A program made the translations under genes and the position numbers. From contig CALXAB010000001.1 in NCBI GenBank assembly GCA_944386175.1, forward strand, positions 47,645-111,644: a stretch of 64,000 nt of DNA, read 5' to 3'. Positions 20,108 through 60,187 of the stretch are shown here, in pieces; within the stretch, counting starts at the first letter, position 1, and every line of letters starts with the position of its first letter. The stretch is from an uncultured Clostridia bacterium. Lineage in GTDB: Bacteria > Bacillota > Clostridia > TANB77 > CAG-508. The notes beneath the pieces are model-generated. The model saw nothing but the letters and a program-made list of their open reading frames with translations, was not told where the DNA came from and did no database searches.

Positions 20108-20345
20108 AGTACACTTAGTGAACTTTTTCTTAAAAATCACTTCTTTTTTGTTCATTTAGTGAACTTTTGCACTCTAAAAAGCGTTTTTTATCCATTCACT
20201 CGGTGAATTTTTGCATCAGATCTGCATAAAATTTTTGTTTTTTTATTAACTCTTGAAGGCTTGCCCTTCAATGTGTATATGCGTTGCGTAATGCACGCTA
20301 TCCTGCCTTTAGTATTCACTTTAGTTCACCTTATCAAAATTAATT
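20108..20345 (-). repeat. partial, orphan copy of the R module (distal half only)
   Basis: Collinear with 51134-51350, 36674-36880 and 43392-43605. Dyads at 20108-20124, 20150-20164 and 20194-20208. Conserved core and hairpin at 20246-20307. No smORF or recombinase adjacent. Confidence 0.85.
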
Positions 20346-20452
20346 TATGTAAATTGTTGAATTATTTCCTTTTTTATGCTATATTAACTGTATCGTTTCA
20401 AAATCTTCTTTATAAAATTTCTACTCAAAATTATTTCAAAGGAGGTGTATTT

Positions 20453-20791
20453 GTGGATTTAAATCTATTGGAACCTATTATTAATAATCTTGATAAAGCA
20501 ATTCATAAGACTAACTTAAAAGACTCTTTTATAGACGAGTTTATTCATGATTTACAAAGAAGTATTTTAAGGCAAAACCTTGATTATGATTATAGTAAAT
20601 TACCTAAAAATACCATATTTGAAGTCGACTATATTGAAAATGGATTTGCTTCTTGTTTAGATACTGCACAAAAACATTCAGAAAAATATTATATTCCAGA
20701 AGAGTTACTTGATGAAACTGCCAAAAATGCAGATTATATTCAACTTGACGGTAACAAATATACTGCTGTTTCTAATCCATATAAAAATTAG
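20453..20791 (+). CDS. hypothetical protein (112 aa)
   Basis: AGGAGG at 20440-20445 and GTG start at 20453. The longer ORF from 20261 would read through the R repeat and is unlikely. Confidence 0.5.
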   Translation: MDLNLLEPIINNLDKAIHKTNLKDSFIDEFIHDLQRSILRQNLDYDYSKLPKNTIFEVDYIENGFASCLDTAQKHSEKYYIPEELLDETAKNADYIQLDGNKYTAVSNPYKN

Positions 20792-21758
20792 TTTCTGCAT
20801 AAAAATAAGAACATATTTGAAACATGCTCTTATAACTTATCTTATTTGCTCCATCTAAATTTAAATCTTTTCTTTTTTCTATTATAATATTATTTCCATC
20901 ACTCTTTAGCCATATAGTTCCATCATCTTTTGTTATAAATATATTATCTTCTTCTATTCCAATATTTTTTAGTCTTTCTAAAACATTTAAGTTTGGATGA
21001 TTATACCCTTCATTATTTCCAGCAGATATGATTGCATAAGTAGACTTTACTATATTTAAAAATTCACTAGATGTAGCATCTTCTGCTCCATGATGTGCAA
21101 CTTTTAATACATCAATTTTTTCTAAACCTTCTATTTTACTGTCTAAGTTATTTGTTAAATCTCCTGTAAATAAATATTTTGTATTTATATATTCAAGTTC
21201 AATTACTATTGATGTATCATTTAATTTATTTTTGTCAGTTGGATCTGAATTATCAACATTTAAACACTTCCACTTTGCTTTTCCTAAACTATATTCGATG
21301 TCTTGCGATTTCTCTATCTGTTGCTTGTTAATATTATTTTCTTTTATATAGTCTTCTAATTCAGTATAAAATCTTTTTCCTTGATATGTACTATATGGCA
21401 TATACAATGTTTTTACATTTATATTTGTTAATACTTCTTGCATCCCACCAATATGGTCTTCATCTATATGTGTTCCAATTAAATAATCTAATTCAACTAT
21501 TCCCTGTTCTTTCAAAAATTTTGATATATATTCTCCATCAGAGCCATTTCCACAATCTATCAACATATTGACATCATTATTCGTGACTAATATACTTTCA
21601 GCTTGTCCTACATTAAAAAAAATTATATTTAATTCTGAACTATCAATTCCAATATTTCCATATTTATTATTTAAGTTCACTTCTATAAATATTAAGAAGA
21701 TTAATACTAGTATAATTAATAATACTGTTAAAATAGATTTTAAGTTTTTCTTATTCAT
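20772..21758 (-). CDS. membrane-anchored MBL-fold hydrolase (ComEC C-terminal lactamase-like domain)
   Basis: N-terminal TM. LIDCGNGSDG, GTHIDEDHIGG and VAHHGA motifs. Confidence 0.7.
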   Translation of the reverse strand: MNKKNLKSILTVLLIILVLIFLIFIEVNLNNKYGNIGIDSSELNIIFFNVGQAESILVTNNDVNMLIDCGNGSDGEYISKFLKEQGIVELDYLIGTHIDEDHIGGMQEVLTNINVKTLYMPYSTYQGKRFYTELEDYIKENNINKQQIEKSQDIEYSLGKAKWKCLNVDNSDPTDKNKLNDTSIVIELEYINTKYLFTGDLTNNLDSKIEGLEKIDVLKVAHHGAEDATSSEFLNIVKSTYAIISAGNNEGYNHPNLNVLERLKNIGIEEDNIFITKDDGTIWLKSDGNNIIIEKRKDLNLDGANKISYKSMFQICSYFYAETNFYMD

Positions 21759-21767
21759 ACTCTCCTC

Positions 21768-22589
21768 CTATACATTTGCAACTTGTAATGTTTCAAAATA
21801 ATCTAGTACACTTTTAACTACCTCTTCTATTGGTAGTTCTAGCCAATTGTTTTTAGCAGTATTTAAACTCTTCAAATAATTTTTGTTATGTAATATTCTA
21901 TTTAATCTTTTAAATATATCCTCTAAGTTATTTTCTTTCATAGTTTCATCACTAAATATAAAAGTATTAAAACATTTTATCAATTTATTCTTATTTAAAT
22001 TTTCATTATTTATTAAATAATAGAAATCAAATATATCTTTGTATCTTGTAGAGATAAAACCAAATTTTAATAATGATTTCAATTTTTCTGAAAAAATTTG
22101 CTCTTTAGAATTTATTAGTAAAGTAACACTTTCTTTGATATTATTTAGATCAAAACAATATTCTTCTTGTTCAATATCAAAATTTTTATGCACTCCTATA
22201 TCTAATTTTGTTTCAATTTTATTATGTCTTTTATCTTTTAATTCAATATATACTCTTTTTCCATTATAATCTTGATGACTTAATTCTTCAATTGGAGCTA
22301 TAATTTTTATTGTTATATCTGATTCTTCATGATTCAACTTATCTATAAAATTTTCTATGGACTCATTTGATAAAGAATACTTTATAAAATCTAAGTCTAA
22401 ATCTCTTGTAGCTCGACGACTATCTTTAGAAATATTATGCATAACTACTCCACCTTTTATAGTTATATTTCTATTTAAAGAACTTTTGGATATTTTGGCT
22501 AGTATAATATCTTGACATACTTTGGCAGATGCATCTAAATGTTCATATCCATCTTTAATATAGTTATCTCTCATTTCTTTTAAATTCAT
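21768..22589 (-). CDS. AbiEii/AbiGii-family nucleotidyltransferase toxin (second locus)
   Basis: ITIKGGVVMHNISKDSRRATRDLDLDF nucleotidyltransferase core. Start overlaps the stop of the upstream antitoxin-like gene. Confidence 0.7.
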   Translation of the reverse strand: MNLKEMRDNYIKDGYEHLDASAKVCQDIILAKISKSSLNRNITIKGGVVMHNISKDSRRATRDLDLDFIKYSLSNESIENFIDKLNHEESDITIKIIAPIEELSHQDYNGKRVYIELKDKRHNKIETKLDIGVHKNFDIEQEEYCFDLNNIKESVTLLINSKEQIFSEKLKSLLKFGFISTRYKDIFDFYYLINNENLNKNKLIKCFNTFIFSDETMKENNLEDIFKRLNRILHNKNYLKSLNTAKNNWLELPIEEVVKSVLDYFETLQVANV

Positions 22590-45225: not shown

Positions 45226-45294
45226 ATATAATTCCCCCATTTTTTACCTTATAAAGTCTTTCGTAAATCCCTCATCATTCTTAAGTATATTATT

Positions 45295-46791: not shown

Positions 46792-46842
46792 CTTCTCACC
46801 TTTCTTTTTCAAATGTCCGTTTTTTCGGACTTATAAAATTTT

Positions 46843-47259
46843 TTATTTCATATAATCTCTAATTTTAAATAATAACTCATCATCTAATATCTCTGTTGAG
46901 GCAAAATTATTTAAAGTATTATTATCTTCCCAATCTATATCAAATAAATTTATCACTTTATCATATCTTGGGAAAGCATGATAATGAACAAATGGATCAT
47001 GCATCATCATAATCATATAATTAAACTTTATTGCTCCAAACCTGTCTCTACATAGTTCTTCATACCATTTTATTACTTTTGGAAATTCAGCACCTTCATC
47101 TTGTAACATTCCACTTACATTTTGTGTTTCTCTTTTCAATAAAATAACTACATCTCCTAATGTTGTTTGTTTTTGCCTAACACAAACAATCCAATACTTA
47201 AACTCTTTAATACAAAGTTCCTCTGGTCTAAATTTTTTCATAAATTCTAAATTGTCCAT
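46843..47259 (-). CDS. HIT-like protein (138 aa)
   Basis: FVHYHAFPRY resembles the HxHxHxx histidine triad. Motif-level call only. Confidence 0.4.
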   Translation of the reverse strand: MDNLEFMKKFRPEELCIKEFKYWIVCVRQKQTTLGDVVILLKRETQNVSGMLQDEGAEFPKVIKWYEELCRDRFGAIKFNYMIMMMHDPFVHYHAFPRYDKVINLFDIDWEDNNTLNNFASTEILDDELLFKIRDYMK

Positions 47260-47282
47260 TGATAAGACCTCCTCTTACATTT

Positions 47283-47922
47283 TTATTTTTTAAACATATC
47301 ATTTAAATTATGTGATATTAATTTTAAATTATCTATATTTTCCCCTTCAATAACATAAGGCGTACAATGTTGTATTTGCAATTCAAATACTCTTTCTCTT
47401 GGTTCAATCTTAAACATATTTAAAAATAAGCACCTTATTGCATGATAATGTGAGAATATTCCTATTGTTATATCATCATTAAAATCTAACGAATCAAGAA
47501 ATCTTTTACATCTTATACTAACATCAGTATAGTTTTCTCCTTTTGGTGCTTTTTGTACGAAATCTGTTCTAAATTTATTAAATTTTTCATCTGTAATATA
47601 TTCATTATATTCATTAGAAGCTAATAAATCCTTCTTTTCCTTCAAATATTCCTAAACATCTTTCTCTTAAATCTTTACTTAAATTTAGTTCATATCCTGG
47701 TTTAGCTAATTTTGCTGTTTGTATTGCTCTCATTAAATCTGAAGAATAAACTTTTTTAATACTTTTAATAATATCATTTTTTGCTAAAATACTTGCTTGA
47801 TTCTTTCCTTATTCTGTTAAACTCGTCAATTCATTATCTAAAGTTCCTGTGTATAAAGCTGTTCCTTCATCATTTATCACGTTTGCCATTGTTTGTCCAT
47901 GTCTAATTATAACTATTCTCAT
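47283..47922 (-). pseudogene. histidine phosphatase (phosphoglycerate-mutase-like) gene with a nonsense codon and a frameshift
   Basis: MRIVIIRHGQT starts at 47922. In-frame TAA at 47809-47811. The C-terminal part (GENYTDVSIRCKRFL...FSHYHAIRCL) is in another frame (ORF 47283-47645). Confidence 0.75.
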
Positions 47923-48506
47923 TAATTGTTACCTTCCTTTTTATTCTTTATTGTTTCAATATATTCTTTAACATATGCGTTCATATCTCTATCAAATAGT
48001 TCTTTTGAATATTCTAATCTTAATAGTTCTTCTCTTAAGATTGGCAAATATACTTCTATAATTTCATCTAACGCCTCTGGTTCTTCTTCAATACATCTTT
48101 TCCATCTATTTTTTCCGATATAAGCAATTTTGTCTGCATCTCTTACAATTTTTCCTTCAACTGTTGGAGGAATACATTTTCTCTTATGATTTACTACTGC
48201 TGAATAACATTGTTCTATTATTTCATTACTATAACTTAACTTTTCCATTTCTTCTTTTAGAATTCTTCCGCTTTCTTCTTCATGTCCTTTATCTGTAACA
48301 GACCTTCCAACATCATGCCAATATGCAGCTATAATACATATTTCTTTATTAGCTGGTATCTCTTCTAATAATTCTTTTACATAGTTTACGACATCAATAG
48401 TATGACCTATAAAATGTAGAGGATCATTTTCACATACTTTCATTTTTTCTATAGCTATATCAATTAATTTTTTATTTTTATTATATATTTCTTCGTAAAT
48501 ATCCAT
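47922..48506 (-). CDS. HD-domain phosphohydrolase
   Basis: FIGHTIDVVNYV and AAYWHDVGR (H...HD motif). Confidence 0.7.
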   Translation of the reverse strand: MDIYEEIYNKNKKLIDIAIEKMKVCENDPLHFIGHTIDVVNYVKELLEEIPANKEICIIAAYWHDVGRSVTDKGHEEESGRILKEEMEKLSYSNEIIEQCYSAVVNHKRKCIPPTVEGKIVRDADKIAYIGKNRWKRCIEEEPEALDEIIEVYLPILREELLRLEYSKELFDRDMNAYVKEYIETIKNKKEGNN

Positions 48507-48680
48507 TCTATCTAAATTCTCCCTATCTCTATTCTTTTATATTTTGACCATATTTTACCATAAAACAATAAAAAAATAAAGCATATAACAAATTAAATTA
48601 TTACATACTTTACCTTTCAAGTTTTATCTCCAAACATTTTTATTTTTCGTTGACAAATCGTTGACATTATCAACAAGAAA

Positions 48681-50573
48681 TTATACTACTCCGCACACCA
48701 TGTCAACTTCTATCGTTACTTTAATTTTATGATTTTCTGTTCTTTTAACCTTATTTTTGCCTTTTCTATCAAAACTAATAAAATCTTCAAAAGCAGTAAA
48801 TTGGGCTATTGTATCGAATCTTTCAGACATAGCACCGAGCAACACTCCACATGGCTCACACCCAGTCTGTAGATAGTTTTGGCTTACCTCGTATGATGAC
48901 TGTTGCAAACTACCTTGATTTTTATCTTTTTGACATTTGATTTCGTTTCCAGATTTTAGGATAAATGTTATTACTCTTGGATTTACATCTCCATTTTGTT
49001 CTTTTTCTCCTATTATAACTTTTTCTATCATTAATTCAAAAACATCTTTATCAAATGTTGGCATTATTTCATCATCTTTAAATAGACTTTTAAACTTGTT
49101 TAATCCTTGATTTAAACTAATTGAATCTTCTAACTCTAGTTGTAAATGTTCTTGCTCTTTTTCTATTTTGTTTATCTTGTTTTGTAATTTTGCCTTTTTA
49201 TCTTTTAATGTTTCAAGTGTTATTGTTCCATTCAAGTTTAAATCAATTAACTTGTCTATCTTTTCTTTTAAAGTTTGTTTTTCTTCTTCTAATTTTTTAA
49301 TAGAACTTTCATTACTTTCTTCTTGTATGATTTCTTCCATTTGTTTTAAGAATGTTTTGATTAGTTTTTTGTTATTATTACATAAAAGTTTATAACTTTC
49401 TGTAAATGCTTCTTCTATAATGTTTTCTTTCATTGCTTTACAATATGGGCAATTTTCTTTTCCATGTTTTACAAATTCCATACAATGCCATACCGTAATA
49501 CTATTTTTTGTTCCAGAGTGCCAGTTTCTTCTTGTTAATAAACTTCCACAAAAACCACAATATATTCTACTACTAAAAGGATATTTTCTGCTAAAGTTTC
49601 CTTTTCTTCTTCCAGAGCCTCGTACTCCTCCTCGCTTTTGTAATATTTCTTGTGCTTGATTAAACATTCTTTCTGAAATAATTGGTTCATGATGTTCTTG
49701 TATGTAATACTGATTTTCTTCTCCCATATTGACTACTCTTCTATGTGAGATTGGATCTGTTGTATATGTTTTTCCTTGTAAGACATCTCCTTTGTATTTT
49801 TCGTTTTTCAAAATACCTCTTATAGTTGAGTCATGCCATTGTTTCTTTCCTGTTGGTGTTTTATATTTCATAGCAGTTAGTTCTTTTGCAATTGTTGTGC
49901 AACCTACTCCTTGACAGTATCTTTCAAAGATATATCTTACTATTTCTGCTTCTTGATAATTTACTGATATTTTCTTTGTTTCTTTATCATATACATATCC
50001 TAAACATCCATTATATCCAATTAATTCTCCTCTTTTTTGTTTCATCTGTAATCCTAGTTTTACATGAGAAGATATATTTTCGCTCTCCTGCTGTGCCATT
50101 GCACTCATTACTGTTAGCATTACTTCGCCAGATAATTCTAAAGTATTGATGTTTTCTTCTTCAAAATAAATAGTGATTCCTTTTTCCTTTAATAATCTTA
50201 CATACTTTAAAGTATCTACTGTATTTCTTCCAAATCTTGATATTGATTTTGTAATTATCATGTCAAATTTGTTTTCTGTTGCATCTTGCATCATTCTCAT
50301 AAAGTTATCTCTTTTATAGTCAAGTGTTCCTGTTATCCCTTCATCTGCATAAATCCCTACATAAGTCCAATCACTTCTTGATTTTATTTTTTCTTCATAA
50401 TATTTTAGCTGAGAATTATAACTATTTATTTGTTCTTCTTTTTCTGTACTAACTCTTGCATAGGCACATACTCTTAAATTGCCTTTTATAACTTCTCCTG
50501 TTGTTCTATTAATTCTTCCTTTTTTCTTCTCTATTACTTGTACTTTCAAAATTAACCTCTCTTTCTCAAGCAT
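48681..50573 (-). CDS. large serine recombinase, unit C, with an in-frame C-terminal CxxC tail
   Basis: VCAYARVSTEKEEQ, SISRFGRNTVD, CGFCGSLLTRRNW...CPYCK and a coiled coil. About 90 extra C-terminal residues are homologous to ORF 40822-41004. Confidence 0.9.
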   Translation of the reverse strand: MLEKERLILKVQVIEKKKGRINRTTGEVIKGNLRVCAYARVSTEKEEQINSYNSQLKYYEEKIKSRSDWTYVGIYADEGITGTLDYKRDNFMRMMQDATENKFDMIITKSISRFGRNTVDTLKYVRLLKEKGITIYFEEENINTLELSGEVMLTVMSAMAQQESENISSHVKLGLQMKQKRGELIGYNGCLGYVYDKETKKISVNYQEAEIVRYIFERYCQGVGCTTIAKELTAMKYKTPTGKKQWHDSTIRGILKNEKYKGDVLQGKTYTTDPISHRRVVNMGEENQYYIQEHHEPIISERMFNQAQEILQKRGGVRGSGRRKGNFSRKYPFSSRIYCGFCGSLLTRRNWHSGTKNSITVWHCMEFVKHGKENCPYCKAMKENIIEEAFTESYKLLCNNNKKLIKTFLKQMEEIIQEESNESSIKKLEEEKQTLKEKIDKLIDLNLNGTITLETLKDKKAKLQNKINKIEKEQEHLQLELEDSISLNQGLNKFKSLFKDDEIMPTFDKDVFELMIEKVIIGEKEQNGDVNPRVITFILKSGNEIKCQKDKNQGSLQQSSYEVSQNYLQTGCEPCGVLLGAMSERFDTIAQFTAFEDFISFDRKGKNKVKRTENHKIKVTIEVDMVCGVV

Positions 50574-50616
50574 AGAGAATCTTTATGTTTGTATTATATA
50601 TTAAAATCTTATATTT

Positions 50617-50802
50617 TTAAATACCTATATGAGTTAAATCATATTCTTTTAAAATATTTTGTTTTAGTTCTAAATATCTTTCCTCTTTAATTAGTCCTGC
50701 ATTATATGTTTTATTTAGAATTGCTATTTTAATGCTACAATTAAAAATATTTTCATTTAGTTTTACATTTTTCGTATTATCAAATTTTACTTCGTACAAC
50801 AT
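50617..50802 (-). CDS. 61-aa conserved small ORF preceding the LSR (copy C)
   Basis: AGGGAGAA RBS. Same protein as copy A apart from a few substitutions. The 105-aa form in the ORF track would run through the leader hairpin and promoter. Confidence 0.6.
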   Translation of the reverse strand: MLYEVKFDNTKNVKLNENIFNCSIKIAILNKTYNAGLIKEERYLELKQNILKEYDLTHIGI

Positions 50803-50905
50803 AAAAATTCTCCCTTGCTTAAATAAAATTTCAAAAAAGAGCAATAGAAAAAGCCAGTCGGCTAGCTTCGACTGACTTCTTTGTCTGACATTTTTTGATA
50901 ATACG

Positions 50906-50934
50906 ATTATATTATGATGTTCTATAAAGTTCAA
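50906..50934 (-). promoter_or_regulatory. consensus sigma-A promoter of unit C
   Basis: TTGAAC (50934-50929), 17-nt spacer, TATAAT (50911-50906). A leader hairpin AGTCAGTCG..CGACTGGCT at 50852-50878 plus TTTTT follows. Confidence 0.6.
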
Positions 50935-50939
50935 TTCCC

Positions 50940-51355
50940 GTTTTTTTCCCTTTTTTCTATTTTAATTGATAAAGTGTTGATTTTTTAGTTAGTACACTAA
51001 GTGAACTTGTGTAAAAATTTTTTTAATTATTTTTTACTTTATTATTTTTGAGTTCACTCGGTGTACTTAGTTTTTTATTATATCAATTTTTAGTACACTT
51101 AGTGAACTAATTATAAATTATTTCATAAAATTTAGTACACTTGGTGAACTTTTTCTTAAAAATTACTTATCTTTCGTTCATTTAGTGAACTTTCACACTC
51201 TAAAAGAGATTTTTTAGTCATTCATTCGGTGAATTTTTGCATCAAATTTGCTTAAAATTTTTGTTCTTTTATTAACTCTTGAAAGCTTGACCTTCAATGT
51301 GTATATGCGTTGCGTGATGCACGCTATCCTGCCTTTAGTGTTCACTTTATATCCT
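50940..51355 (-). repeat. R module, copy C
   Basis: Dyads at 50991-51007, 51051-51067, 51092-51108, 51134-51150, 51176-51190 and 51220-51234. Core and hairpin at 51272-51333. Abuts the stop codon of the 617-aa gene. Confidence 0.85.
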
Positions 51356-53209
51356 TTAATTAGTATTAGATTCTGATGTAGTTTTATTTACAACACCCAA
51401 GTTCTTAATACTATCTTGTAAACTTTCATCTGGAATAAAGTTTCTACAATTTTCTAATTTATAAAATTCCCCTAATTTATCTATATCTTTATATAAGAAA
51501 TAAAAATAGTTTTTTAATGCATTTTCTGTTGTTTCTAATCTAGGTCTTAATGAGTATGCTCTTTTCTTCTTATAGAAATAGTTTTCATTAAATAATTTAT
51601 ATAAATTATTTAGTTCATCACTATCTAATGTTATTTTGTGAAATCTCGTTTCTTTGAAAATATAATTTATTTTATCAATGTCTATATTTAAATCATCAAC
51701 ATATTCTCTAATGTTATTCTTGCTTATTATAGTTATTATAGATAATGTAATACTCATAATTATATAATCCATAAATTCTTTTGATAAATTCATTGTCCTA
51801 AATATTTTTATTGATCTAATATCATTGTTTTCAATCATTTTTAAAAACATTATAATGATTGGTTCACCCTTTATAAGATATGGTATAAATATTTCTTCTT
51901 CATGTATATTTTTTCTTTGCAGAAAATCATTAATACTTCTATCTGGAAATTTTTCCCTATGTTCCATTAATCTAATATTATCGTATAATTCTTCTAGTAC
52001 TCTGTACTTTTCATTTTTAGTTAAATTCTTATTTTCAATAACACATGTATATACAGATTCTAAATATCTATTACTAGTAAACATATATATAGAATCATAT
52101 TTATATAATCTACAATAGCTAAAATCTATAACATTTTCATATAGAAAAATTAAATACATATCTAATTTAATAATTCTCCATACAAGATTTATATATTCTT
52201 TTTCTTGACTTTCAGTTTGAATATATTTTATTTTATCTATTAAATTTGCAATATTTTGCATTTTATAATCATCATGAACAGGCACAAATTCATAATAAGC
52301 AAACATTGTATAAAGTTTACAATATATATTTGCAGCCTCTATATGTTTATTATATAAAATCAAATGCGAAACTATTTCATGTATAGCACTAATCAAATCA
52401 CTTCTAAAAATCATTTCTGTATAATATTCTTGAAGAATTTTTTTGTTATTAAATAAAGTTAAATCTATAAGATTCATTATGTTGTGAATATTATAATTAT
52501 AATCATTATCATTTTTTTGTATTAATACTAATGTTTGATTCTTTAAGTCTGTGATATCTTTGCACCCATGGCTATTTAGAGGAATCGCCTTTTTTATATG
52601 CTTCTTTTGTTTCTCTAAATACATACATAGTAAACTGTTTCCAAACCAATTTTTATGAGTGTAAAACCAAATCATTTTAATACACATATAAAATATAACT
52701 ACAAGAGAAAGCAAAAAATTTATTAATATTAGTATTTGACTACTGCCTTTTAGGCATTGTATAATATTTACAAATAATAGGAGAACTAAAATTATAAAAA
52801 TTTTTAGCAATGATAAAAAACTATTGTTAGGGAAAATAACATTAATATGTTTTTTTCCCAATATATAACTTTCAGACAACCCAGATAATAAAGATATTAC
52901 TGAAATTATTATCAATGTATTACTAATTTGAGCTACTAATATATCATTTGAATCAATGTTAAATTCTTTATTCAAGTCTAATATATTTTCAATTTTGTAA
53001 TCATTAATAGCATAAAAAATTACAAACATACTAAATATAACTATACTAAACATAAAAATAATCATTAAAAAATTCATAATTTTTTGTTTAACTACAAAAT
53101 ATTTTTTATTATCATATATTTTATACCATTTTAAAAATTCTTTTATTTTATAATTTTTATTTAAAATAAATCTTCTTATTTTTTTTAATTTACCATTAGA
53201 ATCTTCCAT
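51356..53209 (-). CDS. 617-aa membrane protein of unknown function, downstream of AbiEii
   Basis: About five N-terminal TM helices, then a ~400-aa soluble region with no motif I recognise. Lies 56 nt after abiEii. Confidence 0.55.
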   Translation of the reverse strand: MEDSNGKLKKIRRFILNKNYKIKEFLKWYKIYDNKKYFVVKQKIMNFLMIIFMFSIVIFSMFVIFYAINDYKIENILDLNKEFNIDSNDILVAQISNTLIIISVISLLSGLSESYILGKKHINVIFPNNSFLSLLKIFIILVLLLFVNIIQCLKGSSQILILINFLLSLVVIFYMCIKMIWFYTHKNWFGNSLLCMYLEKQKKHIKKAIPLNSHGCKDITDLKNQTLVLIQKNDNDYNYNIHNIMNLIDLTLFNNKKILQEYYTEMIFRSDLISAIHEIVSHLILYNKHIEAANIYCKLYTMFAYYEFVPVHDDYKMQNIANLIDKIKYIQTESQEKEYINLVWRIIKLDMYLIFLYENVIDFSYCRLYKYDSIYMFTSNRYLESVYTCVIENKNLTKNEKYRVLEELYDNIRLMEHREKFPDRSINDFLQRKNIHEEEIFIPYLIKGEPIIIMFLKMIENNDIRSIKIFRTMNLSKEFMDYIIMSITLSIITIISKNNIREYVDDLNIDIDKINYIFKETRFHKITLDSDELNNLYKLFNENYFYKKKRAYSLRPRLETTENALKNYFYFLYKDIDKLGEFYKLENCRNFIPDESLQDSIKNLGVVNKTTSESNTN

Positions 53210-53265
53210 ATTTTGCTCCCATTTTCATATATTCATTTAATTATTCTATGTATGTAGTTATTAGA

Positions 53266-54111
53266 TTATTTTTTTAATTCATTCTTTATTTCTTCTAATA
53301 CTCCCATCGTATCTTCATAATTAATATCTTCTGCATAACTAAATTTAGATTGATAATTCTTCCAATGCTCTTTCAGAACATCACTTTCTTTTATAACTTC
53401 CATTATCTCATTTATATTATTTAATTTATCCATTGAACCTCTATATTCAAATTTCTTCAATATAGCTTGTCCTAATAATTCTTTATTAAAATTTTGTTGT
53501 TGAGTAGTCCATAATATATAAATATCATAAAAATCTCTCGCTCTTGTAGTATCTATATTTCTTGATATAATTGTTTCAAATTTATCAGCTATTACTGTTT
53601 CCATATTATATGCTAATATTTCTATTGAACGATTTTCAAACATTAAATCGAACTTATAATTTACTTCTTTTGGAACAATTACATCTCCTGTTGTTATATC
53701 TAATTTCATTGGTACAACTAACTTATCAAATTTAGCATCTAAAGCTACTCTGTATCCTCCATATTCATCTTCTTGTCTTATTTCTTTTATACTTCTAAAT
53801 TCAAATGCTACTCCATCATCTAAATCTATATTAAAAATTTCATTTAAGATATTTTCAAGATTATCCTTTTCTAAATCAAATCCTTTTATCGTTGCATCCA
53901 TATCAAGAGTATTTCTCATGTCTATTCCAACTATTGCTGTTATTAACATTCCTCCTTTTAATACAAATTTATATTTGTATTTTGATACCGAAATTCTTTC
54001 CAATAGTCTTTCTAGCATATAGTTTTGTAAAATAATGTTTTCATTCACATCTACTTTATCTGACATATTCTTTATCCATGCTTTTAATTGTGCTCTATTT
54101 TTTGCTATCAC
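53266..54111 (-). CDS. AbiEii/AbiGii-family nucleotidyltransferase toxin (third locus, intact)
   Basis: FVLKGGMLITAIVGIDMRNTLDMDATIKG nucleotidyltransferase core. 281 aa. Overlaps the abiEi stop by 4 nt. Confidence 0.8.
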   Translation of the reverse strand: MIAKNRAQLKAWIKNMSDKVDVNENIILQNYMLERLLERISVSKYKYKFVLKGGMLITAIVGIDMRNTLDMDATIKGFDLEKDNLENILNEIFNIDLDDGVAFEFRSIKEIRQEDEYGGYRVALDAKFDKLVVPMKLDITTGDVIVPKEVNYKFDLMFENRSIEILAYNMETVIADKFETIISRNIDTTRARDFYDIYILWTTQQQNFNKELLGQAILKKFEYRGSMDKLNNINEIMEVIKESDVLKEHWKNYQSKFSYAEDINYEDTMGVLEEIKNELKK

Positions 54112-54701
54112 AATAACACCTCCAAGTATTTTCTTACTTCATCTTCAATATTAAATAATTTTGCATATTTGTGTAGTTTAATAGAGTTTCTATCTTTTCT
54201 TTCAGCATATCTTTTCATCGCATCTGTAAATAAGGCAATTTCTATTTTTTTCTTATTTCTGATAATGTCACATATTGTTCTCTCTAAATCATAAACTTTA
54301 ACTTTGTTTCCATATGGTGTATTCATTTCTATTATTCCTAATTCATATAATTCATCTTTTAAATAGAAAAATTGATAGTTTCTATCTTTTAGTAATTTAG
54401 TATTATAGTAACTAGGTATAGTCAATTGATATTTTATGGGAGTTCTATCACATAAATCATGAAAATACAAAGCTGTCTCATGAGAGAATATCCCTTTTTT
54501 ACAAATTGCTTGTGTGATAAAATAATTATCTTCAAATGTATCTGCTCCAATATATACTCCTCTTGCTACTCTATCTATCAATCCCTTTTCTATCATCCTT
54601 GTTAAAATCTTATTATTTATCCCAATATCTTCTACTTGATATGTTTCAATCACTCCATTATTATTTTTTAATAATTTTTCTACTTTTTCTATATCATCCA
54701 T
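54108..54701 (-). CDS. AbiEi-family antitoxin (third locus)
   Basis: NNGVIETYQVEDIGINNKILTRMIEKGLIDRVARGVY wHTH region. Paralog of 13551-14141. Confidence 0.75.
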   Translation of the reverse strand: MDDIEKVEKLLKNNNGVIETYQVEDIGINNKILTRMIEKGLIDRVARGVYIGADTFEDNYFITQAICKKGIFSHETALYFHDLCDRTPIKYQLTIPSYYNTKLLKDRNYQFFYLKDELYELGIIEMNTPYGNKVKVYDLERTICDIIRNKKKIEIALFTDAMKRYAERKDRNSIKLHKYAKLFNIEDEVRKYLEVLL

Positions 54702-54716
54702 AAATTTTCTCCTTTG

Positions 54717-54761
54717 CCGTTTTCATTCGTAAATATTATATCATTTACGAATAAAAACGGC
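54717..54761. promoter_or_regulatory. inverted repeat upstream of abiEi-3 (candidate operator)
   Basis: GCCGTTTTCATTCGTAAAT - 7 nt - ATTTACGAATAAAAACGGC, 16 nt upstream of the start codon. Confidence 0.5.
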
Positions 54762-54810
54762 AACAATATTTAAAAAATTAATAGCACAAAATTAAAATTT
54801 GTGCTAAAAT

Positions 54811-55296
54811 CTAACTTTCAAAGTAAAATGCTAACCTTGAATTATTTCTAATATATTTCTCCTCAAAATTATTATTTGTAAAATTTTTTATAGTCTTTCT
54901 CCAAAATTTTTGAGCTCTTTCATTTTTTAATAATGTTCTAACTTCCCATTTTCCTTTATATAACTCAAACATTTTATTTGCCATATATGTACCTGCTCCC
55001 ATTTTTCTATACTTGTTAAGAATAAAAAATTCAGCTATTTCGTTCATATTTTCTTCATTAAATCTATGTAAAACAAAACCTGCTAATTCATTATCACATT
55101 TTAATATATATGGATGTCTATTTTCTTCTTGCCAGTATCTTTCAACATATTTATTCATTACATATAATCCAGAATCTAGCATTGTAAATGTTGCTGTCTC
55201 ATCTTCAAAAAAGCTAAGCTCATATGTATATAATTGCATTAAATTATATATTATATTTTTGTCTTTTTCATCAACTTTTATTAAATCAAATCTCAT
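54811..55296 (-). CDS. GNAT family N-acetyltransferase
   Basis: FFILNKYRKMGAGTYMANKMF (motif A). Confidence 0.7.
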   Translation of the reverse strand: MRFDLIKVDEKDKNIIYNLMQLYTYELSFFEDETATFTMLDSGLYVMNKYVERYWQEENRHPYILKCDNELAGFVLHRFNEENMNEIAEFFILNKYRKMGAGTYMANKMFELYKGKWEVRTLLKNERAQKFWRKTIKNFTNNNFEEKYIRNNSRLAFYFES

Positions 55297-55325
55297 TTTC
55301 TTCTCCTTATTTAAATAATAAAAAA

Positions 55326-55949
55326 CTATTTTTCAATTTCATTATCATATATACTTTTATATTCTTCAAACTTAGCCTTTGCTCTTGGTAGTCCTGCATC
55401 CACTGCCATCTTTAAATAATATTCTGATAATCTTAAATTTTTCTCTGTTCCAACTCCATTATAATAAAAATTTGCTCCTAAATCATAAATTGCTGGAAGA
55501 TGTCCTTGTATTGCACAGTCATGTATTAATTCAAATGCTTTCTTTTCATCTCTTTCAATATTTCCAAATCCAAAATAGTAATAAGCTCCTAAACAAAATT
55601 TTGAAAATGCTTGTCTTCTCGGTGTTTCTTGTTCTTCATTTATAAGACTTAATAGTGATTCATAAGCCTCAATATGTATCTGTTTTGCTTTTTCTTTATC
55701 TTGTTCCACTCCATCTCCAAAATGATAGCAAGCACCAACTCCATATGCACAACGAGGATCTCCTAAGTCTTTTCCTTTTTCATACCAGTACATTGCTTTT
55801 TCAAAACTTTGCTCTGCTCCATTTTCTTGACTATCATAACTTCTTCCTAGAATATAGCACGCAAGTCTATCTCCATTTTTAGCTTTCATTTCTAAATCTT
55901 CTATGTTAAATATCATTGGCTTTATTATATTATTCACTTTTAGCTTCAC
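55326..55949 (-). CDS. Sel1-repeat (TPR-like) protein
   Basis: Repeated Sel1 units: AxxWYxKGxDLGDPRCAYGVGACYHFGDGVEQDKEKA. Confidence 0.75.
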   Translation of the reverse strand: MKLKVNNIIKPMIFNIEDLEMKAKNGDRLACYILGRSYDSQENGAEQSFEKAMYWYEKGKDLGDPRCAYGVGACYHFGDGVEQDKEKAKQIHIEAYESLLSLINEEQETPRRQAFSKFCLGAYYYFGFGNIERDEKKAFELIHDCAIQGHLPAIYDLGANFYYNGVGTEKNLRLSEYYLKMAVDAGLPRAKAKFEEYKSIYDNEIEK

Positions 55950-56481
55950 CTAATTTCTTTAATAAAATATATCTTTTTATATTTTCATCTTTTTTATACC
56001 AAGTTTGTTCCTCATATCCTAAGTCTTTTAAATTTCTTAAACTATAAATATTTCCAAAAGTTACTTCTGCAATAATGTTACTTATTCCTTTTTCTTTAGC
56101 CCTTCCTTCAAGATATTTTACTAATGTTTTCTGTAATCCATATCCTCTATACTCTGGTAATACAATAACTCCATCTATATCAGCACAATTACCTTTGATA
56201 TTTGTAATCATTTGCTTTAATTCTTTCATTCTGCTTGAAACTGATAAAAAAATCCATGCAATCATTTTATTATCTATAAAAGCACCATATATCTCTCCAT
56301 CATTTATAGGGTTGTTTAATATCCTTAAATATGTTTCTTTTTTAAAAGGTAAAAAATAACCTTTTTCCTCCTCTTTAAAATTATCTATTACAATATTTTG
56401 AATATTATATATGTCATCAACGTCATTCGAATTGCATTTTCTAATTTTTAGTTTTTCCTTAGAAAATTGATTAATTTCCAT
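55930..56481 (-). CDS. GNAT family N-acetyltransferase
   Basis: VLPEYRGYGLQKTLVKYL (motif A). Confidence 0.7.
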   Translation of the reverse strand: MEINQFSKEKLKIRKCNSNDVDDIYNIQNIVIDNFKEEEKGYFLPFKKETYLRILNNPINDGEIYGAFIDNKMIAWIFLSVSSRMKELKQMITNIKGNCADIDGVIVLPEYRGYGLQKTLVKYLEGRAKEKGISNIIAEVTFGNIYSLRNLKDLGYEEQTWYKKDENIKRYILLKKLGEAKSE

Positions 56482-56498
56482 ATTTTAATTCACCTTCG

Positions 56499-57494
56499 TT
56501 ATTTTGTTTTTTCAAAAATATCACTCCAAAAGTCATTGTTGCTAAATTCTAATCCTTTTTCACTTTCATAATACCAAAATTTATCTTCTTCCGATATTTC
56601 TCCTTTACTCATCAAATGACTTAACTGTAAAATTCCCATTGCATTTGCAATATCAAATAATATTGGAAATACTTCTTTTTCATAGCTTGTCAATTTATTA
56701 TATTTCTCATACTCATTTAATATCATCCTTATCTTGTTTTTGGTATCTTCAGTATCATTTGGGTTTAAACATAAGTTACAACTACTTACAGCTAAATCAA
56801 TAATTCTAGGAAGATAATTTGACACTGCAAAATCTATTATCCATAATTTTCCATTATTATCTTTCATAACATTTGTACTTATTATATCTCCATGTGTAAA
56901 AGCATGTGGTAATTTTTGCATATCAATATTTTTAAATTTTACTATCAATTCATTTAACCTTGTGTAATCATTTTCACTTAAATGTTGTTTTTTATCCTCA
57001 AACTCTTGTGCAAAATTTATAATTGCCCATTTGTCATAAATAAACTCTGAATCTAATTTTTGGTTATGTATAATCGCCATTTGTCTTATAATTTCTTTTA
57101 TTTCTTCTTCACTTGGAATAATTCCTAAATCAAAAAAGCTATTACCATTTATGTACTGAAATACACATAATCTATATTTGATATTTTCTATTTCAATTAC
57201 ACATTCACTTTCATTATTTACTTTATACAGTTTTGGTGTATTTATTTCTGTTTTTTCTGCTAATTCAATTCTCTCAATATAGTTTTTACAATCTGTATCT
57301 GTTCTTTCTTTATGAAATATTTTTACACAATATTTTCCTGTTGTTGTCTTTAATATATAATTGAAATCTTCATACCCAACTGTAATAATCGTATCTGATA
57401 CATATTCTCCTAAATTATACATATTACATATATGTTTTGAAACTGTACTTAAATCAGTGTTTAGATTAATCCTATCTTTAAATTCTTCTTCCAC
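56499..57494 (-). CDS. APH/choline-kinase-family phosphotransferase
   Basis: Catalytic loop HGDIISTNVM and WIIDFAVS (DFxxS). Confidence 0.7.
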   Translation of the reverse strand: MEEEFKDRINLNTDLSTVSKHICNMYNLGEYVSDTIITVGYEDFNYILKTTTGKYCVKIFHKERTDTDCKNYIERIELAEKTEINTPKLYKVNNESECVIEIENIKYRLCVFQYINGNSFFDLGIIPSEEEIKEIIRQMAIIHNQKLDSEFIYDKWAIINFAQEFEDKKQHLSENDYTRLNELIVKFKNIDMQKLPHAFTHGDIISTNVMKDNNGKLWIIDFAVSNYLPRIIDLAVSSCNLCLNPNDTEDTKNKIRMILNEYEKYNKLTSYEKEVFPILFDIANAMGILQLSHLMSKGEISEEDKFWYYESEKGLEFSNNDFWSDIFEKTK

Positions 57495-57500
57495 TAATAT

Positions 57501-57833
57501 TTATACCTCCATGTACCATTGTTTAAGAAATATACATTTATTGCTCTTATTTAATTTTATTTGATATATCATGTCATATAATATTGTATCTTTCAAAATA
57601 AAATTAACTATACAACATTCATCATTTTCACATAGTATATTGAACTCAATATCATTTGTGTTTTGCCCTTTTATTTCTTCCCATATTTCTCTAATTTTTT
57701 TCATGTTATTTATTTTTTCTATAGGCGACTCATAATACTCCACTTTTTCATCAAATAAGTTAATTATCTTGTCTATATCTTTCTGTTTCCAATTATTTAG
57801 TAATTCATCACACCATTTATAATAATCTCTCAT
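57501..57833 (-). CDS. hypothetical protein (110 aa)
   Basis: ORF only. Its start lies 7 nt from the stop of the kinase gene. Confidence 0.4.
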
Positions 57834-57929
57834 ATTCTATTCTCCTAATCTTTACTGTATATAATATATCATAAATTCCTTAATTTTACAATGAAATCGC
57901 CAATATTTTAATATTACATATATCTTTAC

Positions 57930-58364
57930 ATTTGCTTAACTACCCCAAAATCTCCAATAGAAATAATGTCAAGAGCGAGTGATAACAAGTTCATTTACTC
58001 TTGACATTATTTGTATTGGAGATTAAAATTGCTTTGCAAATGTATAGCACAAATTTTTCGCTTTTTTCGTGATATAAAATTCCATCGGACGAAAATTTCA
58101 ATTTTTTCGTCCGATAAATTTTTATAAGCCGAATTTCATTAAATTTTCGTCCTATAAAAAATAAGCATCAGCAGATATCTACCAACACTTAAATTTATAA
58201 AGATTCTCTATAACTTATTTCATAAATTCTTTCTAACTATTAAAATAACTAATAAATTCACATATCTACTAACCACCTCAACCTATATATGTTTTTCTTG
58301 CCATAGATACAATCTCAAATTTCCTAGTATTTCAAACACTTTCATCAATTTTCTAAAATTTAAT
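57930..58364 (-). repeat. copy d of the non-coding segment found downstream of LSR B (40480-40821), with hairpin H at 57952-58021 and a ~120-bp insertion
   Basis: Collinear with 40480-40821. The insertion at ~58040-58165 carries TTTTCGTSNKATAAA motifs, including the perfect IR ATCGGACGAAAA / TTTTCGTCCGAT (58084-58115). Confidence 0.8.
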
Positions 58365-58545
58365 TTATGTGTTTCCATTTACCATATCTGCAACTACTTT
58401 AACTTTCACATCTGAATTTTGATGTTTTTCTCTTCCAAATCTACCTTTTTTATTAAAAGTTATAATCTCTGAAAACATATCAAAATCAAGTATTACCTGC
58501 CTTTCTTTAGTTGTAGCACTGCTACACACTCCACATGTGTGGTCG
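58365..58545 (-). pseudogene. orphan 3' end of an LSR gene (CxxC tail only)
   Basis: HTCGVCSSATTKERQVILDFDMFSEIITFNKKGRFGREKHQNSDVKVKVVADMVNGNT with no start codon. Similarity to LSR B stops at ~58545, next to CACATGTG (58532-58539). Confidence 0.75.
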
Positions 58546-58597
58546 CTTATAAATTCAATTACAAAATTTTTTTTTGAATATTAAAAATTTTTTATGT

Positions 58598-60187
58598 TTA
58601 TGCTCTTAACTTAAATGTTTTTGGTGCATATTTATATGCCACAAACAATGAAATCAAAGAATAAAGTATGCAAAAAACAATTGTTGCTATTCCAAAAGAA
58701 AATGTAGGTAGTTGTATTTGTATCATATACCAACATACAAAATAAGTTATTCCTTGTACCACTGTATATGTACTACTTTTCATTTCTGTGCTAACATTAT
58801 AAGGTTGAAGTAAATAGTACATTACTAAATAGTGGACTGAAAAAAATACACTCATTGCTATTATAGATATTATCAAAATAGCATAATTTAATGAATTATT
58901 TGTTCCACCAGATAAGTATAGTAATAAAGCTAATCCTAATCCTATTAGTGTTGCTGGTAATAGATTTATTACTATTAAAGTTTTTAATCTTTCTTTAAAT
59001 ATTCCAAGTATAACTTTTGGTGTTCTATATATTCTATATGTAAGCATACTGTAGTCGCAATTCATGAACATTGCTTGGGTAACAGATGAACTCCTATTTA
59101 TACAATACATGATAAACACAAAATATGGCAAATATACCATTAATATTTTATTTATTCTATCCTTAAGTCCGTTATTTATCAAAATCCCAATAATTAGTGC
59201 AATAAAAATAAATAATATAACAATCGATTGTTTTTTTACTGCTTTTGTTAAAATCTTGCTATGTCTTTTTACAAATAAATCATGAAAATATGCAAATCCA
59301 GATTTATTACTTGTATAGTTTTCATTCAATTCTATTTGTTTTAGACTTACATTTTTTATAGCTTGTGTTCCAGTATTTTTCTCTTGCATATATACATTGT
59401 TTTCTGTCAATATTTGTTTATACATCTTTTTATAATCTTTAAAATTATGTATTTTTATTAAACTGTAAATTCCTATTATTATTGAAATAATAAATATAAC
59501 TAAGAAAATATTCTTGTTTAATACTATATTTATAGCTGGTAATCCATAAGCTAATAATAGACACACTCCTACAAATCCCCAGACAAATTTTGTTGGTAAG
59601 TTTTCATTTGATGCCTTGTTTGTCTTCTTAAAGTAATATATGCTGTAATTCATTACAATTAGCTTTATTGCTACCACAAAAAATGGTAATACTATTTGAA
59701 TCCACAAGGGTACTTCTGTTATCATTCCAAATAAAATTGTAAATGGTAAAAAGCCAATAATCAGTTTTAATAATTGATAATAGTAATTAGATAAGCCATA
59801 TTCTCTTGCATTTATATTCATTAAAACTATTGCATAATATTTGTCTTTTGTTGGATTTAACATATATGTGTTTAAAACTCCTCCACATAGTGTTAAAAAG
59901 GTAAATAAATGTATAAACATATCTGATTGATTTGTTTTATACCATGATAATGCCATAAATATCATGGCTACAATATATATGATTTTTCCAATAAATATAC
60001 TTAATATTTCATATAATATACTTATAATATTTGCAAATATTTTTAATCCTTTATTTTTATATAAACTATTTGGCAATATTTTTTTAATAATTGGGAGTTG
60101 TTTTATAGAATAAATAATACTATTTATTCTATATGTATTTTTTAATTTAAAGGATGTTATAAATGTTTCTATCATATTAAATTTCAT
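58598..60187 (-). CDS. polytopic membrane protein, probable permease partner of the upstream ABC ATPase
   Basis: 529 aa with at least 10 hydrophobic segments, directly downstream of the ATPase gene. Confidence 0.5.
   Translation of the reverse strand: MKFNMIETFITSFKLKNTYRINSIIYSIKQLPIIKKILPNSLYKNKGLKIFANIISILYEILSIFIGKIIYIVAMIFMALSWYKTNQSDMFIHLFTFLTLCGGVLNTYMLNPTKDKYYAIVLMNINAREYGLSNYYYQLLKLIIGFLPFTILFGMITEVPLWIQIVLPFFVVAIKLIVMNYSIYYFKKTNKASNENLPTKFVWGFVGVCLLLAYGLPAINIVLNKNIFLVIFIISIIIGIYSLIKIHNFKDYKKMYKQILTENNVYMQEKNTGTQAIKNVSLKQIELNENYTSNKSGFAYFHDLFVKRHSKILTKAVKKQSIVILFIFIALIIGILINNGLKDRINKILMVYLPYFVFIMYCINRSSSVTQAMFMNCDYSMLTYRIYRTPKVILGIFKERLKTLIVINLLPATLIGLGLALLLYLSGGTNNSLNYAILIISIIAMSVFFSVHYLVMYYLLQPYNVSTEMKSSTYTVVQGITYFVCWYMIQIQLPTFSFGIATIVFCILYSLISLFVAYKYAPKTFKLRA

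Follow-up and report, generated by a model that had tools for sequence, protein, structure and literature searches.

A bounded cargo slot behind AbiE toxin-antitoxin pairs in stacked serine-recombinase elements of an uncultured Clostridia bacterium

Three pairs of abiEi and abiEii genes, which encode the antitoxin and the toxin of the AbiE system, lie on the minus strand of an AT-rich stretch of 64,000 nucleotides (nt) from an uncultured Clostridia bacterium (contig CALXAB010000001.1, positions 47,645 to 111,644; hereafter the window, with positions counted from its first letter), and each pair is closely followed by another gene of the same strand. A preliminary description of this DNA had raised the possibility that these followers are the third components of AbiE variants, or else coincidental neighbours in DNA resembling a defence island. 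We regard as probable a different reading, in which the AbiE modules are ordinary, the follower genes are interchangeable cargo of mobile elements, and the follower of the third pair, a gene for a protein of 617 amino acids (aa), is a stand-alone cargo gene and a candidate defence gene. Four observations carry it: the slot behind abiEii has sharp boundaries, its content is swapped among sister loci, both the 617-aa protein and the metallo-beta-lactamase (MBL)-fold protein of the second locus occur independently of AbiE, and the scaffold around the slot is repeated within the window.

The AbiE pairs and the slot behind them

The three loci contain the following genes and sites:

12489-12692, minus strand: follower at locus 1, N-terminal stub of a metallophosphoesterase, 67 aa (matches residues 3-54 of 1xm7_A, E 2.8e-6)
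12710-13564, minus strand: abiEii of locus 1, interrupted by a stop in frame behind codon 183 (pseudogene)
13551-14153, minus strand: abiEi of locus 1, 200 aa (Pfam AbiEi_4, 2e-8; PADLOC PDLC02225, 198 bits)
20261-20791, plus strand: small convergent gene paired with the MBL gene, conserved at about residues 54-175
20772-21758, minus strand: cargo of locus 2, MBL-fold protein of 328 aa with a single N-terminal anchor (Lactamase_B, 2.6e-17)
21768-22589, minus strand: abiEii of locus 2, 273 aa (Pfam AbiEii, 3e-21; PADLOC PDLC02310, 374 bits)
22589-23140, minus strand: abiEi of locus 2, 183 aa (PADLOC AbiEi PDLC02238, 236 bits, full length)
50850-50869, minus strand: terminator-like hairpin, the first on its strand downstream of the abiE promoter of locus 3
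51356-53209, minus strand: cargo of locus 3, the 617-aa gene, of an orphan family without family match, exactly filling the non-homologous gap 53266..51349
53266-54111, minus strand: abiEii of locus 3, 281 aa, DUF1814 nucleotidyltransferase toxin (Pfam AbiEii, 1.1e-37; PADLOC PDLC02288, 320 bits)
54108-54701, minus strand: abiEi of locus 3, 197 aa, antitoxin and autorepressor (Pfam AbiEi_4, 1.3e-6; PADLOC PDLC02225, 234 bits, full length)
54714-54763, minus strand: promoter and operator of abiE at locus 3 (promoter scan and direct sequence reading)

The slot is best seen at locus 3. Relatives of its AbiEii (AbiEii_3) are numerous, with more than 120 clusters at an identity of at least 86% and 7631 clusters at E <1e-20, and 34 metagenome loci with close relatives, many of them short or redundant, served as the sample of sister loci (designated here by L and a number). 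Comparison of the window from 44000 to 60000 with these loci by blastn gave two conserved blocks with no homology in between. The left block (54779..53267), which holds the promoter, abiEi and abiEii, is about 87% identical to the sister loci, and the right block (51348..49174), with an intergenic region, a small open reading frame (ORF) and a recombinase gene, about 84%. Direct reading of the junctions showed that sister homology ends at the abiEii stop codon and resumes 8 nt past the stop of the 617-aa gene, so that the non-homologous gap is exactly this gene together with its 56-nt leader. None of the 34 metagenome loci has a homologue of the 617-aa protein, and other cassettes were read in the same slot:

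L027, L029, L032, L041 and L050: a 947-aa HSDR_N and STAND protein (Avs2 model, 1e-21), disrupted in L033
L030: a 1088-aa HSDR_N protein
L039: a 986-aa HSDR_N and NACHT protein
L034: a 666-aa AAA_15/AAA_21 ATPase, OLD/AriA-like, which matches the AriA, PtuA and GajA models
L026 and L047: a complete Lamassu system with LmuA, LmuC and a DUF3732 LmuB

Recognised defence systems are four of the five alternative types of occupant in this small sample, and the follower changes while AbiE stays about 87-92% identical in the sister loci. The cassettes start 8-56 nt past abiEii and are in most cases preceded by nothing more than a ribosome-binding site, the exception being the Lamassu cassette, with a 128-nt leader that contains a hairpin and then a T-run. 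In the window, the 56-nt gap between abiEii and the 617-aa gene shows neither a terminator-like site nor a promoter scoring at least 9/12, and no terminator-like site was found directly after the 617-aa gene. Such short gaps indicate that the AbiEi-repressed promoter probably transcribes the cargo as well. As judged from the layout of the loci, this read-through has good support, since in most cassettes the space is too short for a separate promoter and no terminator-like site occurs until the hairpin at 50850-50869.

The AbiE pairs themselves are ordinary two-gene toxin-antitoxin and abortive-infection modules, one of them dead. Searches with Pfam and PADLOC recovered them where the preliminary description had placed them, give or take 12 nt, with followers at the distances given there (17 nt at locus 1, 9 nt at locus 2 and 56 nt at locus 3). 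The AbiEii family PF08843 is matched across the three pairs at E 1e-37, 3e-21 and 1.5e-26, the PADLOC models for AbiEi and AbiEii match all of them with scores of up to 374 bits, and the three AbiEi proteins are full-length PADLOC matches (198-236 bits), with Pfam AbiEi_4 in addition at loci 1 and 3. The two genes overlap by 14 nt at locus 1, 1 nt at locus 2 and 4 nt at locus 3. The translations of AbiEii at loci 2 and 3, which are only about 25% identical to each other, contain GG, DxD and the R/K-D-[FY]-[FY]-D stretch. At locus 1, the two halves of abiEii match the N- and C-terminal parts of the PADLOC AbiEii models and a stop codon lies in frame directly ahead of the R/K-D-[FY]-[FY]-D stretch, so that the gene, cut off before its last conserved motif, is a pseudogene.

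The regulatory region of locus 3 also follows the published pattern. Its promoter has a -35 box TTGCCG, a 17-nt spacer with an extended TG and a -10 box TATAAT, and two inverted-repeat arms of 21 nt, complementary at 20/21 positions, surround and overlap it, in a layout that matches the IR1/IR2 inverted-repeat operator described at the abiE promoter of S. agalactiae (PMC3985639). Upstream, a terminator-like hairpin belonging to the GNAT gene (54782-54806) sets the abiE unit of locus 3 apart. As in the systems of Lactococcus pNP40 and S. agalactiae (PMC3985639), a winged helix-turn-helix (HTH), COG5340-type AbiEi precedes a DUF1814 AbiEii with overlapping genes, long inverted repeats embrace the promoter, and the pairs are carried on mobile elements. 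The difference lies only in the context, since the published operon is strictly bicistronic, whereas here and in the sister loci an extra gene begins 8-56 nt past abiEii. Experiments have shown the two genes of AbiE to be enough for a working system (Dy et al. 2014, PMC3985639), and AbiE is known to stabilise the DNA of mobile elements as well as to abort infection.

More distant AbiE pairs were sampled from five annotated records of plasmid type or resembling integrative and conjugative elements (ICEs), with AbiEii proteins 37-47% identical to AbiEii_3. A convergent relaxase gene comes next in two of the five, a hypothetical gene after a 307-nt gap in one, ssb in one, and a small hypothetical gene with a PLD-like gene in the remaining one. 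The pair is therefore the conserved unit in these loci, in line with the literature and with its description as a two-gene system in the preliminary account.

Further observations concern the surroundings of the pair. The AbiE_3-type module of 1.5 kb (83-88% nucleotide identity) was also found beside genes for BipA, an amidohydrolase, Dxr and ECF-type sigma factors, and beside a 110-aa ORF (loci within L024-L057, for example L040, L055, L052, L035/L037, L057 and L042), so that it may move as a unit independently of the recombinase scaffold. In L043 (5848-6477), a 209-aa MBL-fold protein (Lactamase_B_3), of a different subfamily from the MBL protein of locus 2, starts 8 nt past the AbiEii_3 relative. 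Mostly upstream of AbiE, a conserved block that recurs in many sister loci (57501-58537 in the window) comprises the remnant of a recombinase C-terminus (58374-58535) and a 110-aa ORF (57501-57833), with counterparts in L027 (865-1788), L037 (1910-2600), L011 (4114-4759), L039 (9207-9879) and L042 (5248-5622); this block could represent the left end of the element. It is separated from AbiE by a second variable region, occupied here by an APH, two GNATs and a Sel1-repeat protein. The 529-aa ORF at 58598-60187 was considered as a further recombinase and rejected, the short C-terminal remnant at 58374-58535 being the only recombinase sequence there.

Followers in the company of AbiE and away from it

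The 617-aa protein has no match in Pfam, NCBIfam, PADLOC (PADLOC-DB 2.0) or PHROG; among solved structures, no significant fold match and no sequence match were obtained, and the profile search of the PDB was empty. Its AlphaFold2 model, built from a 36-sequence alignment, is entirely helical, with a pLDDT of 86.9 and a pTM of 0.85. Model and hydropathy agree on four hydrophobic helices at about residues 47-67, 92-112, 134-154 and 160-182, one fewer than the approximately five of the preliminary description, which was right about the large soluble domain without recognised family. The N-terminus is strongly basic (14 K/R in 44 residues) and the segment past the fourth helix is basic again, and on the basis of these flanks and the positive-inside rule both termini, together with the all-alpha C-terminal domain of about 430 aa, are predicted to be cytoplasmic. 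Among the invariant residues of the family are Q94-I95-S96, within the second membrane helix, and the QEYYxE motif of residues 260-265 (QEYYTE here). The family is small: it forms 37 clusters when grouped at 90% identity and, among 1.84 billion proteins, has 119 representatives at 50%.

The neighbourhoods of these relatives were obtained mostly by look-ups of exact sequences, a genome scan for relatives having given three loci. By identity to the 617-aa protein, they are as follows:

86-100%: AbiE upstream; the order abiEi-abiEii-617-small ORF-serine recombinase retained
76%: no AbiE; an HTH gene upstream, a 340-aa gene and a different large serine recombinase downstream
74%: no AbiE; an overlapping 296-aa gene, with a recombinase, a Mob relaxase and ParE close by
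68%: no AbiE; a 743-aa gene, a KAP NTPase and a UvrD helicase
45%: no AbiE; 356 nt upstream without AbiEii similarity
about 35%: no AbiE; a relaxase element
29% and 27%: no AbiE; a 195-aa resolvase directly upstream

The family thus lacks AbiE in seven of the ten sequence lineages examined, and keeps it only at identities of at least 86%. All of its contexts are mobile or defence-like, with large or small serine recombinases, relaxases, a KAP NTPase, a NACHT protein or ParE, and no conserved partner was found among the neighbours in eight contexts, except for the small resolvase of the two most distant members. The lack of a neighbour common to these contexts indicates that the 617-aa gene is a stand-alone gene travelling on mobile elements and not a partner of AbiE.

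The most distant full-length relatives (27-29%; P0035 and P0036) lie directly downstream of the 195-aa resolvase (L020/L021, 6005-6592; L022, 6297-6884), the two resolvases being 65% identical to each other. Small serine recombinases are presented as markers of defence genes by Andersen et al. 2026 (PMC13552941), and the position of P0035 and P0036 downstream of a resolvase is the arrangement used there as a bait for defence genes (RADS). The locus in the window differs from that arrangement, since its neighbour is a large serine recombinase, located downstream and separated from the 617-aa gene by a junction element (J, described below) and a repeat array. The searched parts of PMC13552941 make no mention of the 617 family. 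As for still more distant profile matches, they share only the N-terminal membrane module; none of them gave a usable Pfam match, and a Tetraspanin assignment for one of them (P0378) was discarded, its score of 19.9 bits lying below the cut-off of 32.1.

In the case of locus 2, the follower is indeed the membrane-anchored MBL-fold protein that had been described. It resembles the C-terminal region of ComEC (TIGR00361 positions 439-654, 106 bits against a cut-off of 190), and its identification as a full ComEC/Rec2 was rejected, given that only the C-terminal MBL region matches in a protein of 328 aa with a single anchor. The domain also resembles the MBL effectors of the PADLOC models for LmuA, Avs1a and the DRT-associated MBL, with all NCBIfam matches below cut-off. 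The family is large (7184 clusters at E <1e-10), and an AbiE relative occurs upstream of the MBL homologues at 78% and 68% identity and is absent at 66, 61 and 51%. In every case the small convergent gene overlaps the 3' end of the MBL gene, and its product is 77-81% identical in L065/L066 and 30% identical in L062-64. The cassette formed by both genes (window 21771..20342) is accompanied by AbiE in L058 and L065 and stands without it in L066 and L059-64, and the nucleotide homology of L066 to the window begins 3 nt past the abiEii_2 stop. The constant convergent partner and this breakpoint point to the MBL gene and its partner as another discrete cassette in the same position. Scans of viral contigs with AbiEii_2 and the locus 2 MBL protein found nothing, and a tblastn search of plasmids with AbiEii_2 gave only relatives below 30% identity.

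Locus 1 is a wreck, because the phosphoesterase is truncated, with unrelated sequence after it, and its abiEii also carries an in-frame stop. The 67-aa stub had been correctly described as a metallophosphoesterase remnant; it is an N-terminal fragment, and its DxH...GD motif was read directly here. To this has to be added that the toxin gene beside it is a pseudogene as well. The sole solved relative of the stub is chain 1xm7_A, annotated as 'hypothetical protein aq_1665', which we take to be a calcineurin-like phosphoesterase.

The right flank and its stacked copies

The right edge of the slot and the modules related to it contain the following features:

51263-51341, minus strand: junction element J of about 80 nt, copy A, after the 617-aa gene; right edge of the cargo slot
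50988-51193: array of five near-palindromic repeats of 17-22 nt (AGTACACTnAGTGAACT), with start-to-start spacings of 60, 41, 42 and 41 nt
50617-50802, minus strand: 61-aa ORF before the recombinase gene, called as 61 aa in public contigs
48681-50573, minus strand: large serine recombinase, 630 aa (PHROG integrase phrog_95, 1e-141)
40964-43604, minus strand: right module of copy B, with a diverged J, repeats, a small ORF and a second large serine recombinase (571 aa, 40964-42679)
35451-36883, minus strand: right module of copy C; behind J, repeats and 61-aa ORF, recombinase codons 1-48 continue in frame into a purD-like 3' part
20086-20323, minus strand: remnant of copy D, in which J and the first part of the repeat array survive (240 nt, 87.5% identical to 51114-51349)

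In J, an invariant AAGGCAGGA motif precedes two hairpins that show compensatory substitutions. Among eleven distinct copies, 90.4% of the pair cells are paired, against 27-52% when the partners are slid; six pairs change on both sides, and none of 500 shuffles reached the observed covariation score. A scan of 48000-55500 gave no Rfam match to J, and its identification as an intrinsic terminator was ruled out, neither hairpin being followed by a T-run. The window has four copies of the element, all of them on the minus strand (51263-51341, 43526-43604, 36805-36883 and 20245-20323), and others are present in L011, L012, L026, L027, L034, L039, L042 and L047.

The repeat array that comes next is kept in the right modules of sister loci, with matching parts in copies B, C and D, and has the appearance of multiple sites for a dimeric protein that binds DNA. 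The 61-aa ORF, for which the mechanically called frame of 105 aa (50617-50934) is probably too long, is 95% conserved in copy C and 39% in copy B, and has no match in Pfam or PHROG. A near-identical recombinase gene in public contigs carries precomputed Pfam Resolvase, Recombinase and Zn_ribbon_recom domains, and the NCBIfam matches of the 630-aa protein to CcrC (133 bits), CcrB (129 bits) and XisF-like recombinases are below cut-off (900 for Ccr).

The J of copy B follows a 483-aa gene, that of copy C follows an ABC-exporter pair, and copy D lies about 450 nt beyond the locus 2 MBL gene, copy C being 91% identical to copy A (50415-51342) over 934 nt. This fourfold occurrence of the right flank indicates that the window holds stacked serine-recombinase elements and their remnants. 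The order AbiE-cargo-J is common to loci 2 and 3, and no J is detectable at locus 1. The clustering of AbiE in the window is not a chance event in need of a statistic, since at least two of the three AbiE loci are cargo of a mobile-element scaffold that is repeated four times.

A side observation concerns the way in which these elements may be joined. The fusion ORF of copy C (35451-36125, minus strand) places recombinase codons 1-48, with the catalytic-serine motif YARVS, in frame with the purD-like 3' part (GARS_A/GARS_C), and the same junction exists in an independent metagenome contig (L009, 4455-4904), directly after a 617 element. The homology between copies A and C stops near the fusion point (window 50415, about codon 53). 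This suggests an attachment site located inside the recombinase reading frame, in such a way that stacking would rebuild full genes, a shared old deletion being the alternative. No purD-like 5' half was found in the window or in any locus with an approximate E. coli PurD query, nor was an empty site found.

Alternative explanations and related mobile systems

Taken together, these data lead to a model in which abiEi-abiEii, a bounded cargo slot and J are the layout of loci 2 and 3, to which complete copies add the repeats, the 61-aa ORF and the large serine recombinase. This scaffold represents a family of small integrative elements of uncultured gut Clostridia that pile up in tandem. According to its established biology (PMC3985639), AbiE would act as the element's own abortive-infection and addiction module, and the AbiEi-repressed abiE promoter would probably read through into the cargo. 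The 617-aa protein is a candidate defence protein because the same slot holds known anti-phage systems in sister elements, and it would protect against phages without a partner, from the membrane in which it is anchored. In this view, a cue of infection would be sensed by the cytoplasmic helical-repeat domain, upon which the four-helix membrane module would compromise the membrane, with an outcome of the abortive-infection type. We give its anti-phage role, deduced from the company that it keeps, roughly an even chance, and a membrane disruption triggered through the helical-repeat domain, our best guess on its action, less than that. The bolder proposal that the 617-aa protein founds a single-gene family of membrane-anchored defences, with a four-TM effector module and a cytoplasmic helical-repeat sensor, in a slot gated by the AbiEi-repressed promoter and in elements whose attachment site inside the recombinase frame would let integration split the gene and stacking restore it, can only be put forward tentatively.

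Several points weigh against this model. Some followers of AbiEii relatives (BipA, amidohydrolase, Dxr, sigma factor) are plainly non-defence, and the presence of AbiE in such contexts implies that its role as the flank of a hotspot applies only to the subset with J and the recombinase as right flank. Only 34 metagenome loci represent the sister elements, a small number that includes many short or redundant sequences, and locus 1, which lacks a detectable J, can only be a putative member of the scaffold. The adjacency of AbiE and MBL, kept down to 68% MBL identity, is more than trivial, though it fits the shared descent of one element. Finally, both the co-transcription of the cargo and the defence role of the 617-aa protein are deduced from layout and neighbours.

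A true three-component AbiE, in which the follower (the 617-aa protein, the MBL protein or the phosphoesterase) would be a functional partner, such as an extra effector or a sensor modulating the toxin, could account for a same-strand follower at 8-56 nt without a terminator-like site, here and in many sister loci, for the linkage of AbiE_2 and MBL at 78% and 68% MBL identity, and even for the unrelated MBL protein 8 nt past the AbiEii_3 relative of L043. A partner, however, would be expected to stay with its pair, and here the follower varies while AbiE remains about 87-92% identical, several followers are complete, self-sufficient systems (Lamassu, Avs-like), and the homologues of both the 617-aa and the MBL proteins occur without AbiE in most lineages. 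Moreover, distant AbiE pairs often adjoin a convergent gene, and the bicistronic system is sufficient (PMC3985639). The co-occurrence of AbiEii with the follower genes, proposed in the preliminary description as a check, has accordingly gone against the three-component variants suggested there: the 617 family is without AbiE in seven of ten lineages and missing from all 34 AbiEii loci, which show at least five different followers, and the MBL cassette also stands without AbiE at 66, 61 and 51% identity. Homologous AbiE pairs without these neighbours, named there as one part of the refuting outcome, are what the 34 metagenome loci show with regard to the 617-aa gene, and the plasmid pairs likewise. 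The hydrolase-like character of two of the three followers finds no backing beyond those two, save for the single unrelated MBL protein of L043. We consider a three-component system very improbable.

Pure coincidence, that is, AbiE and followers as unrelated neighbours in generic defence-island or accessory DNA without a shared architecture, would suit a region rich in accessory genes (a Fic/Doc-like pair, a Schlafen/AlbA_2 protein, GNATs, APH, ABC transporters) and the position of AbiE_3-like modules upstream of housekeeping-type genes (BipA, Dxr, amidohydrolase). As one of the two options in the preliminary description, it came nearer to the truth than the three-component variants, but it is too weak a statement for an adjacency structured by a bounded cargo slot: the homology breakpoints fall exactly at the abiEii stop and at J in many independent contigs, the order AbiE-cargo-J recurs for two AbiE subfamilies that are about 25% identical, and the structure of J is conserved. 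Coincidence thus appears improbable, if less so than a third AbiE component.

The architecture could also be right and the 617-aa protein not anti-phage, with a service to the element (entry exclusion, membrane anchoring for transfer) or a niche or transport function in its place. Its lack of similarity to any PADLOC model or known effector, the location of several homologues beside relaxases on mobilisable elements, and other cargo of the array unrelated to defence (the ABC-exporter pair, APH, GNATs) are consistent with such a role. Against it stand the recognised defence proteins that make up four of the five alternative occupants of the exact slot, the neighbours of its homologues (a KAP NTPase, a NACHT protein and small serine recombinases, the last being reported markers of defence genes, PMC13552941), and the sparse, patchy and fast-evolving nature of the family (119 representatives at 50% among 1.84 billion proteins), which is typical of defence genes. 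A non-defence function is therefore possible, though on the unlikely side.

Returning to the model of ordinary AbiE modules with interchangeable cargo, no description of a three-gene AbiE or of this family of elements was found in the open-access literature, and partial likenesses exist to several known systems. In staphylococci, Ccr large serine recombinases mobilise tandem cassettes that resemble the staphylococcal cassette chromosome (SCC) and carry anti-phage defences (Hossain et al. 2024, PMC11470126). Both cases share small large-serine-recombinase cassettes stacked head-to-tail at one chromosomal site with varied defences, and the best NCBIfam matches of the recombinase described here are CcrC, CcrB and XisF. 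The Ccr scores, however, are far below cut-off (133 versus 900 bits) and the target gene differs (purD-like here, rlmH/orfX there), so that the present element is not an SCC; in addition, its host belongs to gut Clostridia, its scaffold has parts of its own (AbiE, the J hairpins, the repeat array and the 61-aa ORF), and the array terminates within the reading frame of the recombinase.

A comparison can also be made with the defence hotspots found on ICEs and on P2/P4 elements, where a short region between conserved flanking genes holds unrelated, mutually replacing defence systems in elements that are nearly identical elsewhere. The carrier in the present case is neither a phage nor a satellite, its right flank is a structured non-coding element, and its left flank is a toxin-antitoxin/Abi operon whose promoter probably drives the cargo. 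The search of conserved slots between flanking genes has yielded new defence genes. Integrons, for their part, keep attC hairpins and promoterless cassettes expressed from Pc, with toxin-antitoxin cassettes that stabilise large arrays. The likeness includes largely promoterless cassettes downstream of a resident promoter, a toxin-antitoxin module in the array and a hairpin-forming boundary element with a structure better conserved than its sequence. In contrast to integrons, no IntI tyrosine recombinase is present in or beside the elements, which have a serine-type enzyme instead, each element has a single slot, and J contains a long invariant motif.

The 617-aa protein is, in this context, a concrete and well-modelled orphan candidate for defence, located in a type of slot that has been productive for new immune systems and in the poorly studied uncultured gut Clostridia. 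A note of caution for annotation can be drawn as well: a tight same-strand gene after a toxin-antitoxin pair need not belong to it, the pair being fixed here and the follower variable. If the cargo does use the AbiEi-controlled promoter, the toxin-antitoxin operon would double as a regulator of other immune genes, and in gut Clostridia AbiE would serve exchangeable immunity genes both as an addiction module and as a platform for their expression. J, the repeat array and the interrupted recombinase gene at the end of the array bear on how the elements move and stack.

Other genes of the window complete the picture of its accessory content. The element of copy B (40964-48506) carries an HD-domain protein, a histidine-phosphatase fragment, a 505-aa Schlafen/AlbA_2-HATPase_c_4-Fic_C protein and the 483-aa protein, which matches only phage families of unknown function (phrog_9592); prokaryotic Schlafen proteins have recently been reported as defence proteins (PMC13552941). 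Between AbiE loci 1 and 2, three accessory genes (16650-17069, 17399-17596 and 17737-18819) comprise a 139-aa ORF with weak NCBIfam matches to VbhT/Doc toxin models (E >0.001), far below threshold, a 65-aa ORF upstream of it that could encode its antitoxin, and a 360-aa protein without family match. The interval also contains a pair of ECF sigma and anti-sigma genes at 15050-16418.

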